Below are positions 47,859 through 57,984 of a DNA stretch of 64,000 nucleotides, piece after piece; within the stretch, counting starts at the first letter, position 1, and the number at the start of each line of letters is the position of its first letter. The notes beneath the pieces are model-generated. The model worked only from the letters and a program-made list of their open reading frames with translations, did not search any database and was not told the DNA's origin. Origin of the DNA: Fistulifera solaris (lineage: Eukaryota); contig AP026125.1 in the NCBI GenBank assembly GCA_030295235.1, forward strand, positions 868,001 through 932,000. The letters are read 5' to 3'. The translations under genes were made by a program, and so were the position numbers.

Positions 47859-48703
47859 GGTCAGTTGTGTCAATATATAAGTGAACGAATAGCTAAGATA
47901 CTTCTAGTTGGTACCTTTGTAGAATCCTTTTCTCTTTTTGTCGAAACGATAAGTTTGCGTCATGGTTGTCGGAGTGCGGGCGAAATACCTGGTAAGCTTA
48001 TTTTGTTGGTCTCTTGTCAGTCACATTTTTGGCTGCGTCAGTCGTTGTTTATGACGTCATCCTGATTAAAGCTTTCTGTACTATAGTCAAAAGTGTATGT
48101 CAACTTATCCAAGACTGCATCTCAGTCATGAATCAATATTCTCTTGAGCGGCAATGTTACTTACAGTTCGTTCGTTTGCCAATTATTCTGAGCTACATTT
48201 GCCGTTATTTCGATTACATAGGCTTTGAGCAGCGTTTGAATTGGACTCTCCGATGTTTTAACGTCGAAAAGACTACGAAACGTTGTCTTCCGTATTTACT
48301 ATCGACCCAAAGTGTTGGTTCAAGGAAACCACGACTGCATCTTGGTCATGAGTCATGAATCAATATCATTATTATTTGTCTGAGCCAGATTGTCACCTCA
48401 TCAACATTCCCTAGACCTAGCACCAATACGATGATCCACTTTTTCAATATTCAATAACACAGTTAATCATTTTCCGCCTTGTAAGGTGCTAGCCAACACT
48501 TTTACAGTACTAGAGTAACTGGTGGCGGTTGGTGTCGCACTGTAATATCTCAAACAGTGGAGCAAGCAAATGAACCCCAACTCTTGATGAAGAACAAAAA
48601 TGAATTCTTTTGCTAACGACAAAACGACGACACACGCTTTAACTTTGACGACCCTTTCCTTGCAACGAGGAACTAGTTGCAATCATTGCACATTATACAA
48701 AAC

Positions 48704-50068
48704 ATGCGCTTCACAGCTCTATTACCTTTCGTTCTCCATTCGACAACATCAGCATTCTCGACAAAACCTTCCGCAGTTCTAACAACAATGCAGCGGACAT
48801 TTTATCAACGACCCCTGCCCACGTCGTGTACCGCCTTTTCGTCCGAACAGGGAAAACTCTTTTTCCGATCGGCTCTTGAACACAACGGTCTCAAGTCTTT
48901 TTATTCACTCATTGAACAATATTCGACACAAACGGAACCGGCGTTCTGTGGTTTAGCGACTCTGGTGGTGAGCTTGAATGCACTGGCCGTCGACCCCCGA
49001 CAAGTCTGGAAAGGTCCCTGGCGCTGGTATGAGGAAAGCATGCTCAATTGCTGTCTCGATTTGCATATTGTTAAAGAGACGGGAGTCAATTTACGGCAAT
49101 TTGAATGTATGGCGCACTGTCAAGGGTTGGCGACCGAGTTGTATTATACTGACGAAACGGGTTTGTCAGAGTTTCGAAATGCGGTGCGGCGGGCTTGTGT
49201 GGAGGATCATAGGGATGATCCCCATTCATCATCTCCCATTTTAGCAGTCTCCTATTCACGTCGAGTACTTGGACAGACTGGATCGGGACATTTTTCACCA
49301 GTCGCCGCTTACGATCAAGTATCGGATCAAGTTCTCATTCTCGATGTTGCTCGCTTCAAATATGGAGCCCATTGGGTGCCCTTACCACTGCTGTACGAAG
49401 CCATGCAACCATTGGATCCCGATACGAGTCGTTCACGTGGATATTTGCTCCTCTCGGGACCACCGCAACATGCCAAAAATGGTGATGACAAAAACGAACG
49501 GAAGGAAACACTTCAACCGGCTCTACTTTTATTCTCGCCCATGGAACAACGTGATGCTCGACAAGCGTTCAAAAATAGGTTTCTGGTAGATCAGCGGTTG
49601 GAACCTACTTTTGGGCAGATTTTGGACTATTGTACATCGGGTGGAAAAGATTGGGGGAGGTTATGGGAGCTGACTCAGGTACAACTACGACCATGCGTCG
49701 AAGATAACGCAAACGATCAAACGATATCTATACAAGATCTCGTCGACAAAATGGTGGAAATCTTAGAGGATCTTGTCAGATCGGAAAAAGGCCAAGCTTT
49801 CGAAACAGCCCAACCAGTTGAAATGGAGAAGGACGGTTGTTGTCGTAGCAAATGTCGTCCGAATTTCGGACGAACACATCCAGTGACTGCTACTCAGGTT
49901 GCATACTTGGTGTATCTGTCTGTATTGGAGGAGGATAAGCGACGGGGACTTTTGTACTCTGCTGCCGACGCGACTTCTGTCGTCGACGGGGTGGCACGGG
50001 ATCAGTTGTTGCACGAAGCTCATTTGCTTCGAACTGCGCTTGACGTGAGTGATACAGATGTATTGTAA
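48704..50068 (+). CDS. PCS: Phytochelatin synthase (glutathione gamma-glutamylcysteinyltransferase), intronless
   Basis: FYQRPLP, TQTEPAFCGL (catalytic Cys), LNALAVDP..WKGPWRWYEESMLNCC, GQTGSGHFSP (His), LILDVARFKY (Asp), and a C-terminal CCRSKC motif. Confidence 0.95.
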   Translation: MRFTALLPFVLHSTTSAFSTKPSAVLTTMQRTFYQRPLPTSCTAFSSEQGKLFFRSALEHNGLKSFYSLIEQYSTQTEPAFCGLATLVVSLNALAVDPRQVWKGPWRWYEESMLNCCLDLHIVKETGVNLRQFECMAHCQGLATELYYTDETGLSEFRNAVRRACVEDHRDDPHSSSPILAVSYSRRVLGQTGSGHFSPVAAYDQVSDQVLILDVARFKYGAHWVPLPLLYEAMQPLDPDTSRSRGYLLLSGPPQHAKNGDDKNERKETLQPALLLFSPMEQRDARQAFKNRFLVDQRLEPTFGQILDYCTSGGKDWGRLWELTQVQLRPCVEDNANDQTISIQDLVDKMVEILEDLVRSEKGQAFETAQPVEMEKDGCCRSKCRPNFGRTHPVTATQVAYLVYLSVLEEDKRRGLLYSAADATSVVDGVARDQLLHEAHLLRTALDVSDTDVL

Positions 50069-50648
50069 TAGTTAACATCCTTATTTGTTTATTACCACGT
50101 ATGTGAACAGATTACGTTAGGCTTCAAAATAGCTAGAGTCAGATTTTTTTTTGCTAGCTGTGACCTTGCTCTACGTTAGAGTAAAGTATTCGATTTTCAA
50201 ATCCACAAGGATTTGCAATCTCAGTAACTGCACACTGCAAAGCGCTTGCATATATAGCTTACTAAGATTTTTGCAACTAAATAAAGCCATCATATGCTGA
50301 GCAGAACTTTTTTGACCATGTCGCATGCGAGAAACGCCTTGACGGATCCGGCGTTGTTCTGACTCATGACTGGAAATCCAGTCTTGTACTCTAGAAATAC
50401 GGACAACACTCAAGATCATTGTCAACTGGAGGGATCGAAGAGGAAAATAACAGCTACCGCGCAGTACAATGCAATGGAGAATAATTATTTTTTGACAACA
50501 AAAAATTGCAATCATATGCTGAGCGGCAAAAGTTTACCAGGTATCACGTCGCAAGCGAGGAGAACGAAACCGATCCGCTGTCGTTCTGGCTCATGACTGA
50601 AAATCCAGTCTTGTTGAAATACTGAGTCCACTCCGGACTTGGCTCCAG

Positions 50649-50735
50649 CGAAATAAGGCAGTGGTGTAAAATTATGACTACAAGTGTTACATCTACCACG
50701 GAGGCTTCCCGTCTGTACTACACTCGGTTATTTCG
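50649..50735 (-). repeat. 3' LTR (87 bp), preceded on the minus strand by a short polypurine tract GAGGGGA (~50737-50743)
   Basis: Near-identical to 57387-57474. The adjacent + strand 'gtcccctc' reads GAGGGGAC on the minus strand. Confidence 0.9.
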
Positions 50736-51099
50736 GTCCCCTCACGATGAGACCCGAGCTAGGGCTTCAACGTGTCCTTCATAACCGATAAACCCTTATT
50801 TCATGGAAAAACAACATAAAAACCATGACGATTCATTCATCGAATCCATCCTTCATCATGTGGAAAATACATCAAAACCACACATCGACTTGTCCGTGGA
50901 AAATACGTCAAAACCACGTATCAAACTTGAAACTTCAATCACTGTACCTGGACGAAAAACTTATCCCCAGGAGGCTCATCCCATCGGAATAGTAAACATA
51001 ACTACCCAACCAGTGCATCGGGACCTATCGCCTGCATCACTGATGTAAAATACGCTTCACCAGTGGATCTCGTACATTCCCAGCTTGAATCTTCGTCAG

Positions 51100-54000
51100 A
51101 ATATCTGCCAAATTCGTCTTCGTGAGGCTCGTAGGATACATCAACGATACCCATTGCAACTCGGCCACGCATATAGTGATATGCCACCGAATTGGACTTC
51201 TTCTTCAGAACTGATTCAGGAATACTCGAGTTCTTGATCACCGACATATTGTCACCTTTGACAACCGCAGGATCTTCTACCGGCACACCCATCATCTGTA
51301 GTTTGTACCGTAGACCTTCGATTAACTCGACCGCCCGTTTTCATAGCACTAAACTCAGCACCAAATGTCGACGTCTCAATCGAAGTTTGCTTCTTGCTGT
51401 ACCATACTGTCAATGACCTGTTCAAATAGATCAAGACACCTGTACGGGAACGACGAGTAACATGGTCACCTGCCAAGTCAGCATCAACGAAACACGTTAT
51501 TTGCACAGGCTTACCCAATGGCTTTGGACAATCCGTTGGAATCATAGGCTTAGCATCTCGGTAAAAGTCATTCCAATCAGGTCTAGGTTGTCTGGCGTGC
51601 TCGACATACGAAGGATCGAACACAATCTTAGACCTTTCATGTGACCTCAAATATGCAAAGACATGCACAACCGCAGCTAGATGGCCTTTCCTTGGCATCG
51701 CACTGTGAGACGCAAGCATCGAAACTTCACCACAAATATCAACTCTTCCAAGCTCGACCATCCAGCCGTAAAACCCCTATCTGCGAAAGTGATAAAACTG
51801 GATTTCGCCGTCATCGCACTCCCGGCGATATGTCAAGCTCCGGACGGTACTTCGGTGGTAAAACACTTGACGCCTTCTTCGGGTAAAGCCTCATCTCGCT
51901 TTTCCAACCAAAGACAAACGTTTCAGTATTGCTTCCTTCACATATTCATTCGAACTCATCGACCAACAAGGCTTTTCATCACCCGGGAATTGATGCTGAC
52001 CAATCGTCGAACCCAAGTAGCGAAGTCGGCTTGCCTATCGAACCTTCTTTCAGAAGAAAGTGTTGATCAAGCTTGTATAGAATAGCTTCCGGCGCTGCAG
52101 AAACACACAGGATGTCATCCGTATAGACCAATACCAACTCGTAGTAACTAGTCCCATCCGCTTTCTGTGCCGGCCGTATCCATACATCGTTATCCCATTT
52201 CGACAAGGTGTAAAACTCAACGACTCATGCAAACACTCACTCAGATATGACCTCCACGCAGCTCCAGAACTCTTCAGTCCGTAAAGAGCTTTCACGATTT
52301 TCGCCTTTCGACCTTTGAACTGTGGACCAAATTCGGCACCGCAAATAATAAAGATTCGTTCTCGAACTGGTGCATTCAAGTACGCATTTCCAATATCTGC
52401 CGCCATAATGTCCAAATCGTTCAATGCCGCGAAGTAGGAAGGCAATCCGCACGCTTTCTCTCGATACAACACTAGCATAGGTAATCGAGCTCGGCGGATC
52501 CGTCATGTGTCCCCCCTGCTACGAGGGCGGGCCTTCCGTGTGAAATCTGGTTTTATATCAAAAACCATGTGAACCCCAATCTTGGTAAAACCAGCAGGAT
52601 CGGGAGCGTCTTCGTCAAGGATCTGAAACGCCCTTAGCTACCGCGACGCATCTCTTCGCGAACGCCCCAAAAAGTCAGTTCCCGTAGCGCGATCAATCGC
52701 CAATGCTTCTTCGACTGTCTTTGGCAACGCGATTCCATATTTCTGAGTAACACGAAAGTAGCTTAGCCATCGCTTTGATGATCCTGGTCCTTCTCTTGAG
52801 CGTGTAGGGAACCCACCATGAGAAAGCAGGCTCCTCAGCAATCTGTCTCGCAACAGCAAATTCCGCTAACTGTAAAGGGTGAGACTGCTTTAGGTCTTTC
52901 AGTTTCTCCCAAGTAGTAGTGCCATCATTCCATAGACAACACAGCTTCCATCCCTTGGTAGTCCGCTTAGGATACTTTCGGTTGTTGTGGATCACGAATG
53001 CCTCTTCATGCGGAACCGCTGCGACGACTCTTTCTTGTAGTCCACTATTTCCTTTAGGACATAACTCGCGAGCCCATGGTCATCCACTTCGGCATAGATG
53101 GCTTCAGCGATCTGATTCGCATGATAAGCCTCCACTTCACCCGTATCAAATTCAATCTCATACAGAGCGGTATCGAGCAAAGGGTTAGGATGGTACCGGC
53201 CAATAGGATTCCCGTCTTGATCGTGCTTCCGACCTTTAACCGCATCACGACATCGAAAGTCCCCTATGGAAGCATTACCCTTGCTGAGACATATTGATTG
53301 TATGAATCGTAATCAAACTCATCAGCTTCCTTTATCTCGGGAACTTCGGGATCTTGCGACCGGTCGGAACATAGTATTCCAACTCTGGGGTGCGCTCGTC
53401 TTCCGGTATCTCGGTCGGATCCAAGGGCATGGCTCGGTCCTTCAGCTTTTGCTCCAACGTCTGCGTGAACTTTGCCATCAACTCAGCAACGGCTTGGCTA
53501 TTCTGTTCCTCAACTGACAAAGGGAAAACACTTGTACGGGAAATCGGTCGACCAGAAGCGGGTAGGATCCTAGCACATAGGACATCACCGACATCGAAAC
53601 TGGGACCAAGGTATCTTCCAAGATGCTTCCTTTCCATATTTTCGTCTTGAGGCGAGATAAACCAAACCCAATCATACCAACCGAACTCACAAATGTGTGA
53701 AATATCAGCGGTGTCCCCTGTCAAAAGCGTCATGCACTTCACCATCTAACTGTCTTATGGAAAGACAAGAGTGGCTCCGAACATACGCGTGGTAGACCAA
53801 ACATAGGTCCCATAGACAACGTGGGGAATTCGTGCGAATCATAGCACGCCCTATACATCCTTTTCAATTCACGAATGCCGTCTTCAGCGAGGGTTGGCGT
53901 TGTGTGCTTCGATCGGCCTAATGGTCGCTTGCACTCGTTGCGCCTTTCGCTTAAACTCTCCTGCTGTCAACTCTCCGGCATTGTCTGGAATCAAAGTGTG

Positions 54001-56504
54001 AGGGACTCCGACGCTGACGAAACAAGTTGTCAAGCGTGTAATGGGCATCGCTTTTCTTTTCAATCGGGTCCACACATATCCAGTGAAAGGGGGTGCAATA
54101 CACAGCCGCATATTTGTTACCCAGCAGTGAGACACATGTACCGACCAGAATGTCGCAGTACATCTCCGTATTAAGCCGAGGATAACGCAGCTGGTACGCG
54201 AAATGGTTTGAGACGGCAGCGTTCCAGAGACTGTCGAGAAGTCCCGAATTGCCCGTTGGCGTCATTCGCTGGAGCGTTTAGCCGTCTCGAATCCCTATAC
54301 TCCATCGTTTTGCCAAATCTTCGGGTGCGACATATGCTTTCCGGTTCTTCGTTGAGATTGCAGCACTTGTAAGCGAAGCAGCATACGAATCGATGTCAAA
54401 AGCTGCCGAACCGCTCAGCTGAAATCACAGCAATCGAACGAGCTGGCGGGACAAATGTGCGCTCACTTCAGAATCGAACCAAGCATCCTCTGTCCCCCTA
54501 AACGAAGCTCAGAGTCAAGGGAAACACGCAATGAGTCCTCATCATGCGCGTGGTTAGAATCCATAGGATCCCAGAACGACTTCGGAGGTGACGTTTACAT
54601 GGATGCAGTCAACGTCCGAGCTCAGTTCGTTGTCGGTCGGTCGGCGAGTGGGGAAATATGAAATAGTCCCCATCAGTTTCAAAGGAATCTGGAGAGCTGG
54701 CTCAGAAAACAAAATAGAATGGCTCTCCGGGCGACGTTGTTCCGGGAGGTAGGTGTAGGAGAGGAGTTTCATTCACAACGACTTGGTTGTGCCGAAGTTG
54801 AGCGGGGCTGATCAAGTGTCCATGCATGTTTGAAAAGTAGAGTGACTGGTGAAAGAACAAAACGTGGGTTTGCAGCGTCGTGGGGCAATCGTATGCAACC
54901 GCGAACTGTACCAATGGGAACTTTGGTCACTTTCCCAAGAGAACTAATGAATGGTTCCACCGAAACTGTTTCGGCCGGTATCATACACGAGAACCGCTCG
55001 TCTTTACCGAACGAGCAAGTATCGCGAGTGCGAGTCCAATTCAGCTCTACCAGGAGTCTGTTGTCGCATTGCCGCCGCGAACTCGCTGCACCGCCAGTCA
55101 AGGTCGTCGACTCATGCGGTTACCTGTCGACTCAACCACATCGTCACTATCGGAGTCAGCCGTCTCAACAGCTGAAGCATTTCGCCCTCGGACTTAGCCC
55201 TTTCACGAGCATTGCGAACTTCTTCCTGTTTCTCTTTTGGCAACTTGATCCACTCCTTCCATTTGTAGTACGGGACACCATCCTTGCCTTTCTTTGCTTT
55301 TCCGCCCTTTCCTTTACCAGATTTGCCGCCACCTTTCTTGTTGTTACCGCCGCCAGAATTTCTGGTAACCGAAGAAATGTTGCTAGTGGAACCACGGGTC
55401 TTTGCTGCATCTTGCTTCTTTCTATCAACCTGCTCAGCCAAGTAGTTCATCGCGCTGAAGGTACTTTCCAACACAGCATCAGCCCGGACGCTGCTCGACG
55501 CTTCATCTTTAGTTCATCTGCCCAGATGTTGTCTAGAAAGATTCGTACCTTCCTATCTTCAGTCATCACCTCACCCGCCTCTTCCAAGTCCAAGAAAGCC
55601 AAGTTAAGCTTCTGACAGTAGTCTTCAAAGGTGAAGTTACGCCTTTCCATCATAGAAGACTGTCGAAAGGACTCGGTCGGCCTGAGCAATGTTGGGCGCT
55701 TCTGATAAGAATGCCCCATATAGTGAGTCTTCAAGGCAAAATAAGCGCGTCCATCCTTGCTGTAAGCAAAAGGCTTAACCCAATTCCAAGCTGGTCCACC
55801 GTGTGAAACCTGACGAATAACGCCTCCACAGCATCATATTGTCTTCTTCATACTGGTCTCCATCATGGCGAAAGTGACGAACAAGTTCCGACATAGCATC
55901 AGGGACACCGAAACCTGGATCATCAACCCCTTCGATTCCATCGGGATCGACATGCTCCCGCACAAGGTACGACAAAGGCGCACCATAAGCTCCAAGGTGA
56001 TTGCCAAGTACCTCGCCGATGTCTTCAATCGTCTTCCCGAGCGTTTTCCACCTTCAACAACACATCAATCTTAGGAAGATCTTTGTTGGTCTCACGCATG
56101 CGAATGCGCCACGCAAAGTCCAAGCGCTGCCCAATCGAGCAAGAGTTGCAAAGCCAGGAACAAACTCGCGCTGCAAGCGGTGCAAGTGGAAAAGGAAGTA
56201 GCGAAGCTGACGAACACGGAGCTCAAGATTGACTCCGATCGCAATACCACGGTTCGGAATCATCGCGAGGTTGCATCGGTGCAGCCTCCGCTCCAGCCGC
56301 AGGAGGGACAAAGGCTGGGTTTGGAATCAAACCCCCAGGGTTTCAATCTTCGTAAAGATCTCCTGAACGTACTTATCACTCCGGTGCGTCAAGTCGTCAA
56401 ACGCTGGTAATGCCTTGGCCATTGATGGCCTGATGAGCTGCCGCATCCTCAATAAAGAGGACATCACGGAGGTAGTTGTTGAATGCAGCAAGATTGGCTG
56501 CCAT
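51100..56504 (-). pseudogene. gag-pol polyprotein of the copia element, fragmented by many frameshifts in this assembly
   Basis: gag starts MAANLAAFNNYL (56504), FTFEDYCQKL. Protease ELDSH near 55040. Integrase MYCDIL / IPDNAGE / AEDGIRELK. Chromo-like KGWKLCCLWNDGTTTWE. RT ADIGNAYLNA, KALYGLKSSG, LVYTDD. RNase H FVDADLAGD..TRRSRTG, IETSTFGAEF, GDNMSVI, LKKKSNSVAYH. Confidence 0.88.
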
Positions 56505-57375
56505 CGTAAACAAGGAGAAAGGAGAGAAAGTTCACAAATCGGAATGCGAGGGAGATAAAACGTAAACGACGTTTTCTTTTTCTTTTTTGTGTGCGAAACT
56601 GCATCGTCGCTAAAACGTTTGCACGAAATTCGACCCCTTTACTCTCCCTTCGAGAGTGTTGTTTACTGTAGGGAACTCCAGTGTAAAGCGCCAAAAGTGC
56701 CCTTATGTACGTAAGGCCATTGTACACACTAGCCCATACAGAATAATCGTCCACACCCTCATTTAGCTCTGAATCCGTTCATAGTCAAAAAAACAGATCG
56801 GCCTAAACAGTATAGAACACGACCTCGGACAGGCCAAAATACACGCACAACACGATTTCACTTGCGCAACTTCTCGCGAAATCCGACGATGTTGTGCTTT
56901 GACCGCCTCTGGAGGAAAAACATTCCTCCACCATGAGGACTTCGCAACAATCGGGTGAATAATTCACTCATTTATGTATTCTAGCATTAAAGGTGTATTA
57001 GCATGTATACGAGGCGCCCCCATATTTTACCGACAAGTGACATAATCACTGTGGTCCGATGCATCCATCGACAGAGCCAGAACTGTCAATAAAGGAAAGC
57101 AACGGTGCTTCATAAGCGCTAATTACCTCACAAACCCAGCCATCTAATCAAGACATATGATTAACATGATGACTCCATGGGGTCGACCTATACATAAGGT
57201 CATGATCTCACATTTTCATGTGGACAATTGTCGACTTCCGACAACGCCGAGATCATCTCCTTGACCACTCAAGCCCAACAGTTAGTAACACATACATAAG
57301 GAACATTACTCTTACGATATTACCATTGTTTTCCTGTGTATTTCATCGTTTCAGAGGGATTCATCGCGAAACCCC

Positions 57376-57386
57376 GGCTTTTAACC
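57376..57386 (-). promoter_or_regulatory. Putative primer-binding site GGTTAAAAGCC, complementary to a tRNA-Lys(UUU) anticodon stem-loop
   Basis: The + strand reads GGCT-TTT-AACC directly adjacent to the LTR, the same register as the copia/Ty5 half-tRNA(iMet) site (..CAT-AACC). Confidence 0.65.
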
Positions 57387-57474
57387 CGAAATAAGGCAGT
57401 GGTGTAAAATTATGACTACAAGTGTTACATCTACCACGGAGGCTTCCCCGTCTGTACTACACTCGGTTATTTCG
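57387..57474 (-). repeat. 5' LTR (88 bp) with 8-bp terminal inverted repeat CGAAATAA...TTATTTCG
   Basis: Similarity to the other copy starts and stops exactly at these bases. The putative PBS abuts it. Confidence 0.9.
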
Positions 57475-57477
57475 CCA

Positions 57478-57600
57478 GACTCCTCCTCCGGACTCCTCGG
57501 TCCGCTTTAGACTCCTCCTCCGGACTCATAGTCCGCTGTAGACTCCTCCACCAGACTCGGTCTGCTTTAGACTCCCTGGACTCCTCGTCCGGACTCCTAG
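57478..57600. repeat. ~30-bp 'agactcctcctccggactc' minisatellite (~4 copies); a related stub lies at 50625-50648 on the other side of the retroelement
   Basis: Units of 32, 31 and 29 bp beginning agactcc; ctccggact also occurs just left of the 3' LTR. Confidence 0.8.
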
Positions 57601-57984
57601 TTTTTGTAGTCTCTAGAGAGAGAGAGTTCATTGCTGTTCGAAGGCCAGTTTTAATCGGCAGTTTCGCATTTCTTATTTCGTTTTTCGCAATCTTATTTTC
57701 GTATTTCACATTCGTATTTCGTATCCATGGATTTACAGAGAAAATGACAGACGAACTTCTTTATTTTTTACTGTCCTTTATGCGCAAATGCGAAGTGTGC
57801 GGCGTGCGGCCGCGCAAAAATACGAAAATGGGATATAAGTTCGGTTAACCTTAGGCGAAAGTTTACGTTCTGAAAATATCTTTGCAACAAACTCGCAACA
57901 TCGCTCGCATGATGAATTAGTGAAAGACGAGAAGCATCCCTCGTACAAACCAAGTAAACTTCTCCTTCATTTAATTATATCATT

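Follow-up and report, generated by a model that had tools for sequence, protein, structure and literature searches.

The locus

The window analysed here is a stretch of 64,000 nucleotides from the genome of Fistulifera solaris, and it carries a Ty1/copia element of 6,826 bp on the minus strand (50649-57474), with two LTRs, PBS, PPT and TSD all present (Table 1). A preliminary description of this DNA had reported that two direct repeats of 87 and 88 bp stop at an 8-bp inverted repeat, and alignment of the repeats bears this out: their similarity is bounded exactly by CGAAATAA...TTATTTCG, which form a perfect inverted repeat, and one C in a C-run is the sole difference between them. The CCAG that it had placed outside both LTRs, and the PBS-like site and PPT on their inner sides, are found there as well. 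These are features of a Ty1/copia element; the usual 5'-TG...CA-3' ends, which are typical of copia elements and not defining, are absent, the ends being CG...CG in all 12 paired copies described below.

Table 1. Features of the element (positions in the window).
Feature	Position	Strand	Basis
TSD CCAG, left copy	50645..50648	.	sequence; one copy at the empty site in run X1
3' LTR, 87 bp, CG...CG	50649..50735	-	repeat comparison and genome copies
PPT GAGGGGAC, abuts 3' LTR	50736..50743	-	sequence; [AC]GGGGAC after pol in 52/80 related loci
pol: protease, integrase, RT, RNase H; many frameshifts in assembly	51037..55069	-	tblastn of P0003
Probable gag region, approximate boundaries, frameshifted	55100..56510	-	weak PF14223 match and position upstream of pol, from which it is inferred
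PBS, 14 nt, directly abuts 5' LTR	57373..57386	-	complement of nt 27-40 of nuclear tRNA-Lys(UUU)
5' LTR, 88 bp, CG...CG, 8-bp terminal inverted repeat	57387..57474	-	repeat comparison
TSD CCAG, right copy	57475..57478	.	sequence; empty site

All 1,346 residues of P0003, an intact public homologue which is 88% identical to a sister copy over RT-RNase H, are collinear with 55069-51040 in tblastn. The order of domains, protease, integrase, RT and RNase H, is that of copia. RVT_2 (PF07727, E 2.6e-8 in the window) falls on residues 832-1028, and upstream of it lies, in the relatives, an integrase core that matches the integrase of PFV (foamy virus) both by profile (E 3e-4) and by predicted fold (E 6e-9). 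The gag match upstream of pol (PF14223, Retrotran_gag_2) is weak, with an E of 0.066, below the cut-off. The N-terminal part of the integrase (alignment A2, columns 1-50) has two predicted helices, and the aligned stretch has no His/Cys zinc-binding set. A YCATAATY-like motif with at most one mismatch occurs in 22 of 33 LTRs (window 57387-57474 and L110-L189), a raw count, and is perhaps a promoter or a 3'-end signal.

In the surroundings, the insertion lies 580 bp beyond the end of an intact ORF for phytochelatin synthase (48677-50068; PF05023, E 6e-82). The left flank contains a diverged duplication with a spacing of about 225 bp (50268-50614), and the right flank contains GACTCC-rich repeats (57478-57601); one other copy of the family (C7) lies in a similar repeat. 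A target preference for the GACTCC repeat found no support, a 15-nt piece being found once in the genome.

Copies in the genome and the empty site

A search of the genome with the LTR gave 28 matches, of which 24 make up 12 paired copies with two whole LTRs each. In these copies the LTRs are 87-89 bp long, CG stands at all 48 LTR ends, and every copy is flanked by a 4-bp TSD (ttac, ccag, agaa, gagg, aaat, ataa, cggc, agaa, tgag, attc, ccag and ttag, that is, ten different 4-mers). One further match is a solo LTR, again CG...CG, with tttt on both flanks. A TSD of 5 bp or more fails at all 13 of these sites, and matches of 5 to 8 bp occur in none of the 12 paired copies. The remaining three matches belong to two damaged copies: one has no more than 5 bases of its 3' LTR, and in the other, which is older (84-94% identical), the 5' LTR is CG...CG and the 3' LTR is truncated, with CA as its start. 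The two LTRs are identical in nine of the 12 pairs and one homopolymer base apart in the other three, so that the insertions are recent. Thus, none of the paired copies extends to TG/CA termini, and at least 12 insertions have ...CG-3' at both joined ends together with a 4-bp stagger.

The site before the insertion can also be seen. In an independent wetland metagenome, one contig joins 50644 to 57475 and skips 6,830 bases, the 6,826 of the element plus one CCAG (four letters of the contig are ambiguous), so the allele without the element keeps a single CCAG. Since CG ends and the 4-bp stagger recur across 12 insertions and agree with the empty site, these are the very ends that the integration machinery joined. 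The earlier argument that a chance mutation cannot explain them therefore stands: the family is a real and recently active copia-type element, and CG ends are its working, inherited state.

Several loci deserve mention. In an older copy, L041 (G000:C33:438100-448000), the 3' LTR is truncated and about 2.3 kb of the interior is duplicated. One family copy hosts a different copia element with a frame of 1,452 aa nested inside it (L039-L040, G000:C7:1011200-1026500). Two further CG...CG LTR types occur in the genome, each once: one of 102 bp near a contig end, with the same Lys PBS (L068, G000:C36:724472-724573), and a solo LTR of 109 bp flanked by ctat/ctgt (L109, G000:C4:391749-391857).

Priming

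The nuclear tRNA-Lys(UUU) complementary to the PBS is present at two loci. A tRNA family search gave nothing beyond these two nuclear tRNA-Lys loci, and a plastid-type tRNA-Lys matches 12 nt of the PBS. By what is known of copia biology, the 5' half of tRNA-Lys(UUU), with its end at nt 40, would prime the minus strand, and the GAGGGGAC tract would prime the plus strand. One PBS position is C, as in the tRNA, in only two of 13 young copies and T in the other 11; therefore the PBS is seemingly not reset from the primer in each round. The window family would use Lys(UUU) in this way, whereas most of its relatives carry GTTTATCAG-type sites. These we take to resemble the anticodon arm of an Ile tRNA.

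End types among relatives

Other families with a 4-bp TSD in the same genome (loci L070-L108) have the ends TG..CA, TA..TA (L073), CA..TG (L074, L075, L097, L098) and AC..GT (L088); one copy in the TG..CA set, L085, has a 5-bp match at its TSD. Families with a 5-bp TSD in this genome end in TG..CA, TG..TA, TA..TA or TG..GA. Metagenomes were surveyed through the best 80 of 564 related stretches, several of which are near-duplicates. Where the tract [AC]GGGGAC follows pol (n=52), the LTR after it starts with TG in 25 loci, CG in 11, TA in 6, CA in 6, and AA, GG, CC and AC in one each. Although first taken as a mark of non-canonical families alone, the GGGGAC tract also occurs in TG..CA relatives. 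After L111, L124 and L145 had been reassigned by eye to CG at a second PPT tract, the C-starting loci numbered 21 (14 CG, 6 CA and 1 CC).

What do the other ends of these LTRs look like? A PBS-like site locates that end in eight C-starting loci, and in seven of them it is G, either as CG (L111, L140, L148) or as TG (L110, L112, L132, L145); the eighth, L141, is a poor match ending in C. Among the other loci with a PBS-like site, 26 of 28 end in A; the exceptions are L165 (TG..CG) and L129 (TG..TT), so that a G end occurs in one of 28 loci which do not start with C. Four more C-starting loci look G-ended when judged by the likeness of their inverted repeats alone, a circular criterion, and were left uncounted. 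In four loci the PBS begins TGTTATCAG, so that the end possibly lies one base further. L110, with an LTR of 89 bp, is the only G-ended metagenome locus with both flanks, and no TSD is seen there. In a distant relative, L122, the inverted repeat of the window family recurs with canonical ends (TGAAATAA...TTATTTCA), on an LTR of 116 bp. No relative was found in the viral contigs scanned, and the 75 matches of a 16-nt PPT-LTR pattern in prokaryote genomes were taken as chance.

In an RT-RNase H tree of 57 rows, from which L141, L163, L130, L089 and L071 (near-duplicates or long branches) and L178 (too short) had been left out, one clade (98/90) takes in both rows of the window family, every one of the 17 C-starting metagenome rows and three database proteins; its sister group consists of TG..CA elements. 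The CA..TG family of the genome groups apart, together with L165 (99/89). The state of the start, C or T, changes twice on this tree, compared with at least 11 changes in 300 shuffles, and a constraint that forces all C-starting rows into a single clade is not rejected (p-AU 0.086); hence the C start arose once or twice. LTRs of the clade start with CG, CA or CC and finish with CG or TG. The preliminary description had assigned to the lineage an integrase using 3'-CG ends with a 4-bp stagger. Ends and stagger hold for the 12 insertions, the integrase being perhaps specialised for such ends or perhaps tolerant of them, and 3'-CG is too narrow for the relatives: the trait of the wider lineage is an end in pyrimidine-G, not specifically in CG.

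A residue in the integrase loop

The loop before the catalytic Glu, where integrase contacts the DNA end, reads mostly EPYSP-W-QNRAE in T-starting elements and EAYTP-N-ANxAE in C-starting ones. Among the 38 tree rows with both traits, Asn is found in 11 of 11 C-starting rows and in none of 27 T-starting rows (21 Trp, 3 Phe, 2 Glu and 1 Arg), and the CA..TG family of the genome also has Asn. The residue of the genome's own families was taken from any copy whose frame is intact at this place; the window copy is frameshifted inside the loop, and its Asn was read from L029, L041 and homologues. By profile the residue aligns, with one gap downstream, to Gln215 of PFV, whose counterpart in RSV is Gln151; as the loop is one residue shorter than that of PFV, this match depends on anchoring by Pro-Tyr-x-Pro. 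According to the available part of one structural account, Gln151 of RSV makes a stacking contact with the G opposite the penultimate C of the viral end, in the base pair that adjoins the terminal A (PMC7955051).

It can be imagined that loss of Trp at this position relaxed a preference for terminal A, and that Asn there goes with G ends. We offer this causal link tentatively, as one that has somewhat less in its favour than against it. Loop residue and end type give only two independent contrasts, which is not significant (sign test, p 0.5). Loss of Trp is not sufficient, because the TG..CA sister group already has Glu there, nor does Trp enforce A, because the AC..GT family and L129 (TG..TT) keep Trp and still end in T.

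How could the ends have changed?

The element is, we believe with fair confidence, a young Ty1/copia element of a CoDi3/CoDi4-like group with 4-bp TSDs, in a sub-lineage whose joined 3'-terminal base has changed from A to G. By analogy with copia biology, the lineage's own DDE integrase would join 3'-pyrimidine-G ends. When the end of one LTR changes, the following round of reverse transcription puts the change into both LTRs. Each end can thus switch separately, and L165, with TG...CG, fits a halfway state of such a switch. A bolder form of the same reading, that an undescribed and widespread copia lineage switched its joined base from the almost universal 3'-A to 3'-G at both ends twice, each time with Trp to Asn in the loop, is doubtful as a whole.

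The strongest rival supposes that integrases of the 4-bp-TSD kind barely read the last two bases, so that the G clade is an inherited accident of drift and Asn just a marker of the clade. Much can be said for it: five terminal types coexist among the 4-bp-TSD families of one genome, CoDi3.2, CoDi4.2 and CoDi4.3 add TA..TA, TA..CA and TG..TA, the AC..GT family keeps Trp, L122 has the same 8-bp inverted repeat with TG..CA, and G ends come from only one or two origins. Free drift would, however, scramble both bases, while within the clade the penultimate base varies between C and T and the last stays G across lineages about 60% identical in RT-RNase H, and outside it the last base stays A in the 26 of 28 loci mentioned. 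General tolerance of this kind is a reading to be taken seriously, albeit an unlikely one.

A second rival makes the copies non-autonomous, moved in trans by the canonical integrase of another family. Indeed, pol frames are broken in all 14 stretches and in the window copy examined, with a longest piece in the family of about 325 aa, some indels are common to several copies, and the unrelated nested element has its frame of 1,452 aa. On the other side, short-read contigs from as many as four studies share one reading against that of the window at the 12 indel places inspected out of 90 listed, and this, like the otherwise patchy sharing of indels among copies, fits errors of long-read assembly; homologues at 81-88% identity have whole pol frames of 1,346-1,348 aa, and the ends of the family follow its own RT tree. 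Assembly error is thus a likelier cause of the frameshifts than real decay, and movement in trans is improbable. As for mutation after insertion (for instance TA-to-TG/CA hypermutation) or an assembly artefact as the source of the CG ends, the assembly is indel-rich in these repeats and the older copy has its CA start, but the uniform 48 ends, the paired LTRs differing only in homopolymer length, CpG/TpA ratios without depletion (1.06/0.65 in the element and 1.11/0.63 in the rest of the window) and short-read contigs that break to other flanks at 50649 and 57387 leave it hardly any credit.

With the change from A to G in the sub-lineage as the preferred reading, what would follow? Terminal CA is regarded as nearly fixed for retroviral-type integrases, for a reason described as poorly understood in the accessible text of PMC5659011. 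A clade with G at both ends beside A-ended sisters, with enzymes about 60% identical, supplies material for paired comparison and a candidate residue that can be tested directly, and if the double switch with Trp to Asn were true, it would amount to a natural experiment on the reason for which LTR elements retain terminal CA. There is also a practical side. As the preliminary description had warned, LTR finders that demand TG..CA or LTRs of 100 bp would miss the element, and settings of this kind are quoted in the part of PMC6317226 at hand; annotation by TG..CA or by a 100-bp minimum drops no fewer than 12 whole and recent insertions of a single family, and likewise the CA..TG and AC..GT families of the same genome.

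Comparison with known systems

The nearest known elements are CoDi3 and CoDi4 of diatoms (CoDiI, including Blackbeard), which, as far as the available parts of PMC2806351 and PMC8147415 go, share the copia domain order, a 4-bp TSD and short LTRs with the window family. Their lengths of 6.3-7.7 kb (PMC8147415, Tables S10 and S11) include that of the window element, and CoDi4.2-4.5 come near to it with 6.5-6.8 kb. Some of these families also lack canonical ends: the accessible text of PMC2806351 gives CoDi3.2, 4.2 and 4.3 without TG/CA and a 4-bp TSD for Blackbeard, and PMC8147415 lists TA..TA, TA..CA and TG..TA for CoDi3.2/4.2/4.3 (Table S11) and, for CoDi3/CoDi4 in general, a 4-bp TSD, the motifs TGCA, TACA, TGTA and TATA and LTRs from 112 bp (Tables S10 and S11). 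The 4-bp TSD, which the preliminary description had set against the usual 5 bp of copia elements, is therefore ordinary for the group, since Table S11 already has it, and it also occurs in the TG..CA, TA..TA, CA..TG and AC..GT families here. The difference lies in the ends: the motifs listed for CoDi3/CoDi4 have T first and A last, on LTRs of at least 112 bp, whereas the window family has G at both ends and LTRs of 87-89 bp. No CoDi family is catalogued with CG ends in Tables S10 and S11, and CGCG, CATG and ACGT are absent from the CoDi motifs in the available part of that supplement, where one TTCG entry with TSD TATA looks column-swapped; the accessible portions of PMC5445492 and 10.1101/2025.10.24.684338 contain nothing on CoDi ends. 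Placement near CoDi3/CoDi4 is by likeness and not by a tree with named CoDi sequences. In the literature searched, we found no published report of a CG...CG or doubly G-ended copia element; as Repbase, GyDB and subscription journals lay outside the search, the word undescribed is provisional. The 4-bp TSD is known, and G at both ends is what stands out.

Priming has its parallels, too. In the text available from PMC6317226, priming by half a tRNA molecule, cut in the anticodon stem, is a recognised mode, and a PBS complementary to the anticodon arm is the likeness that the window family shares with it; for FunCo1, an internal tRNA-Lys PBS as in the window family is described in the accessible part of PMC5445492.

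Non-canonical copia elements of plants, as presented in the available portions of the LTR_retriever study (10.1101/137141) and PMC5659011, likewise combine the copia type with non-TGCA ends and short LTRs. The motifs named there are TG..GA, TA..TA, TA..CA, TG..CT, TACT, TGTA, TCCA, TG..TT and AA..CA, with TGTT and AACA as copia ends in the latter source, and the former, in the part at hand, calls the first T invariable. Nearly all of these keep one canonical end, mostly with 5-bp TSDs, and none of those named in these portions starts with C or ends with G, unlike the window family. A whole lineage with symmetrical non-CA ends is found in the errantiviruses of Drosophila, gypsy, ZAM and Idefix, for which the accessible text of PMC5408687 and PMC3601003 gives AGT...AnT. 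These are Ty3/gypsy elements with T ends and sequence-specific targets, whereas the window family is copia with G ends and varied targets; their AGT...AnT ends, as given there, indicate that integrases can shift their end sequence.
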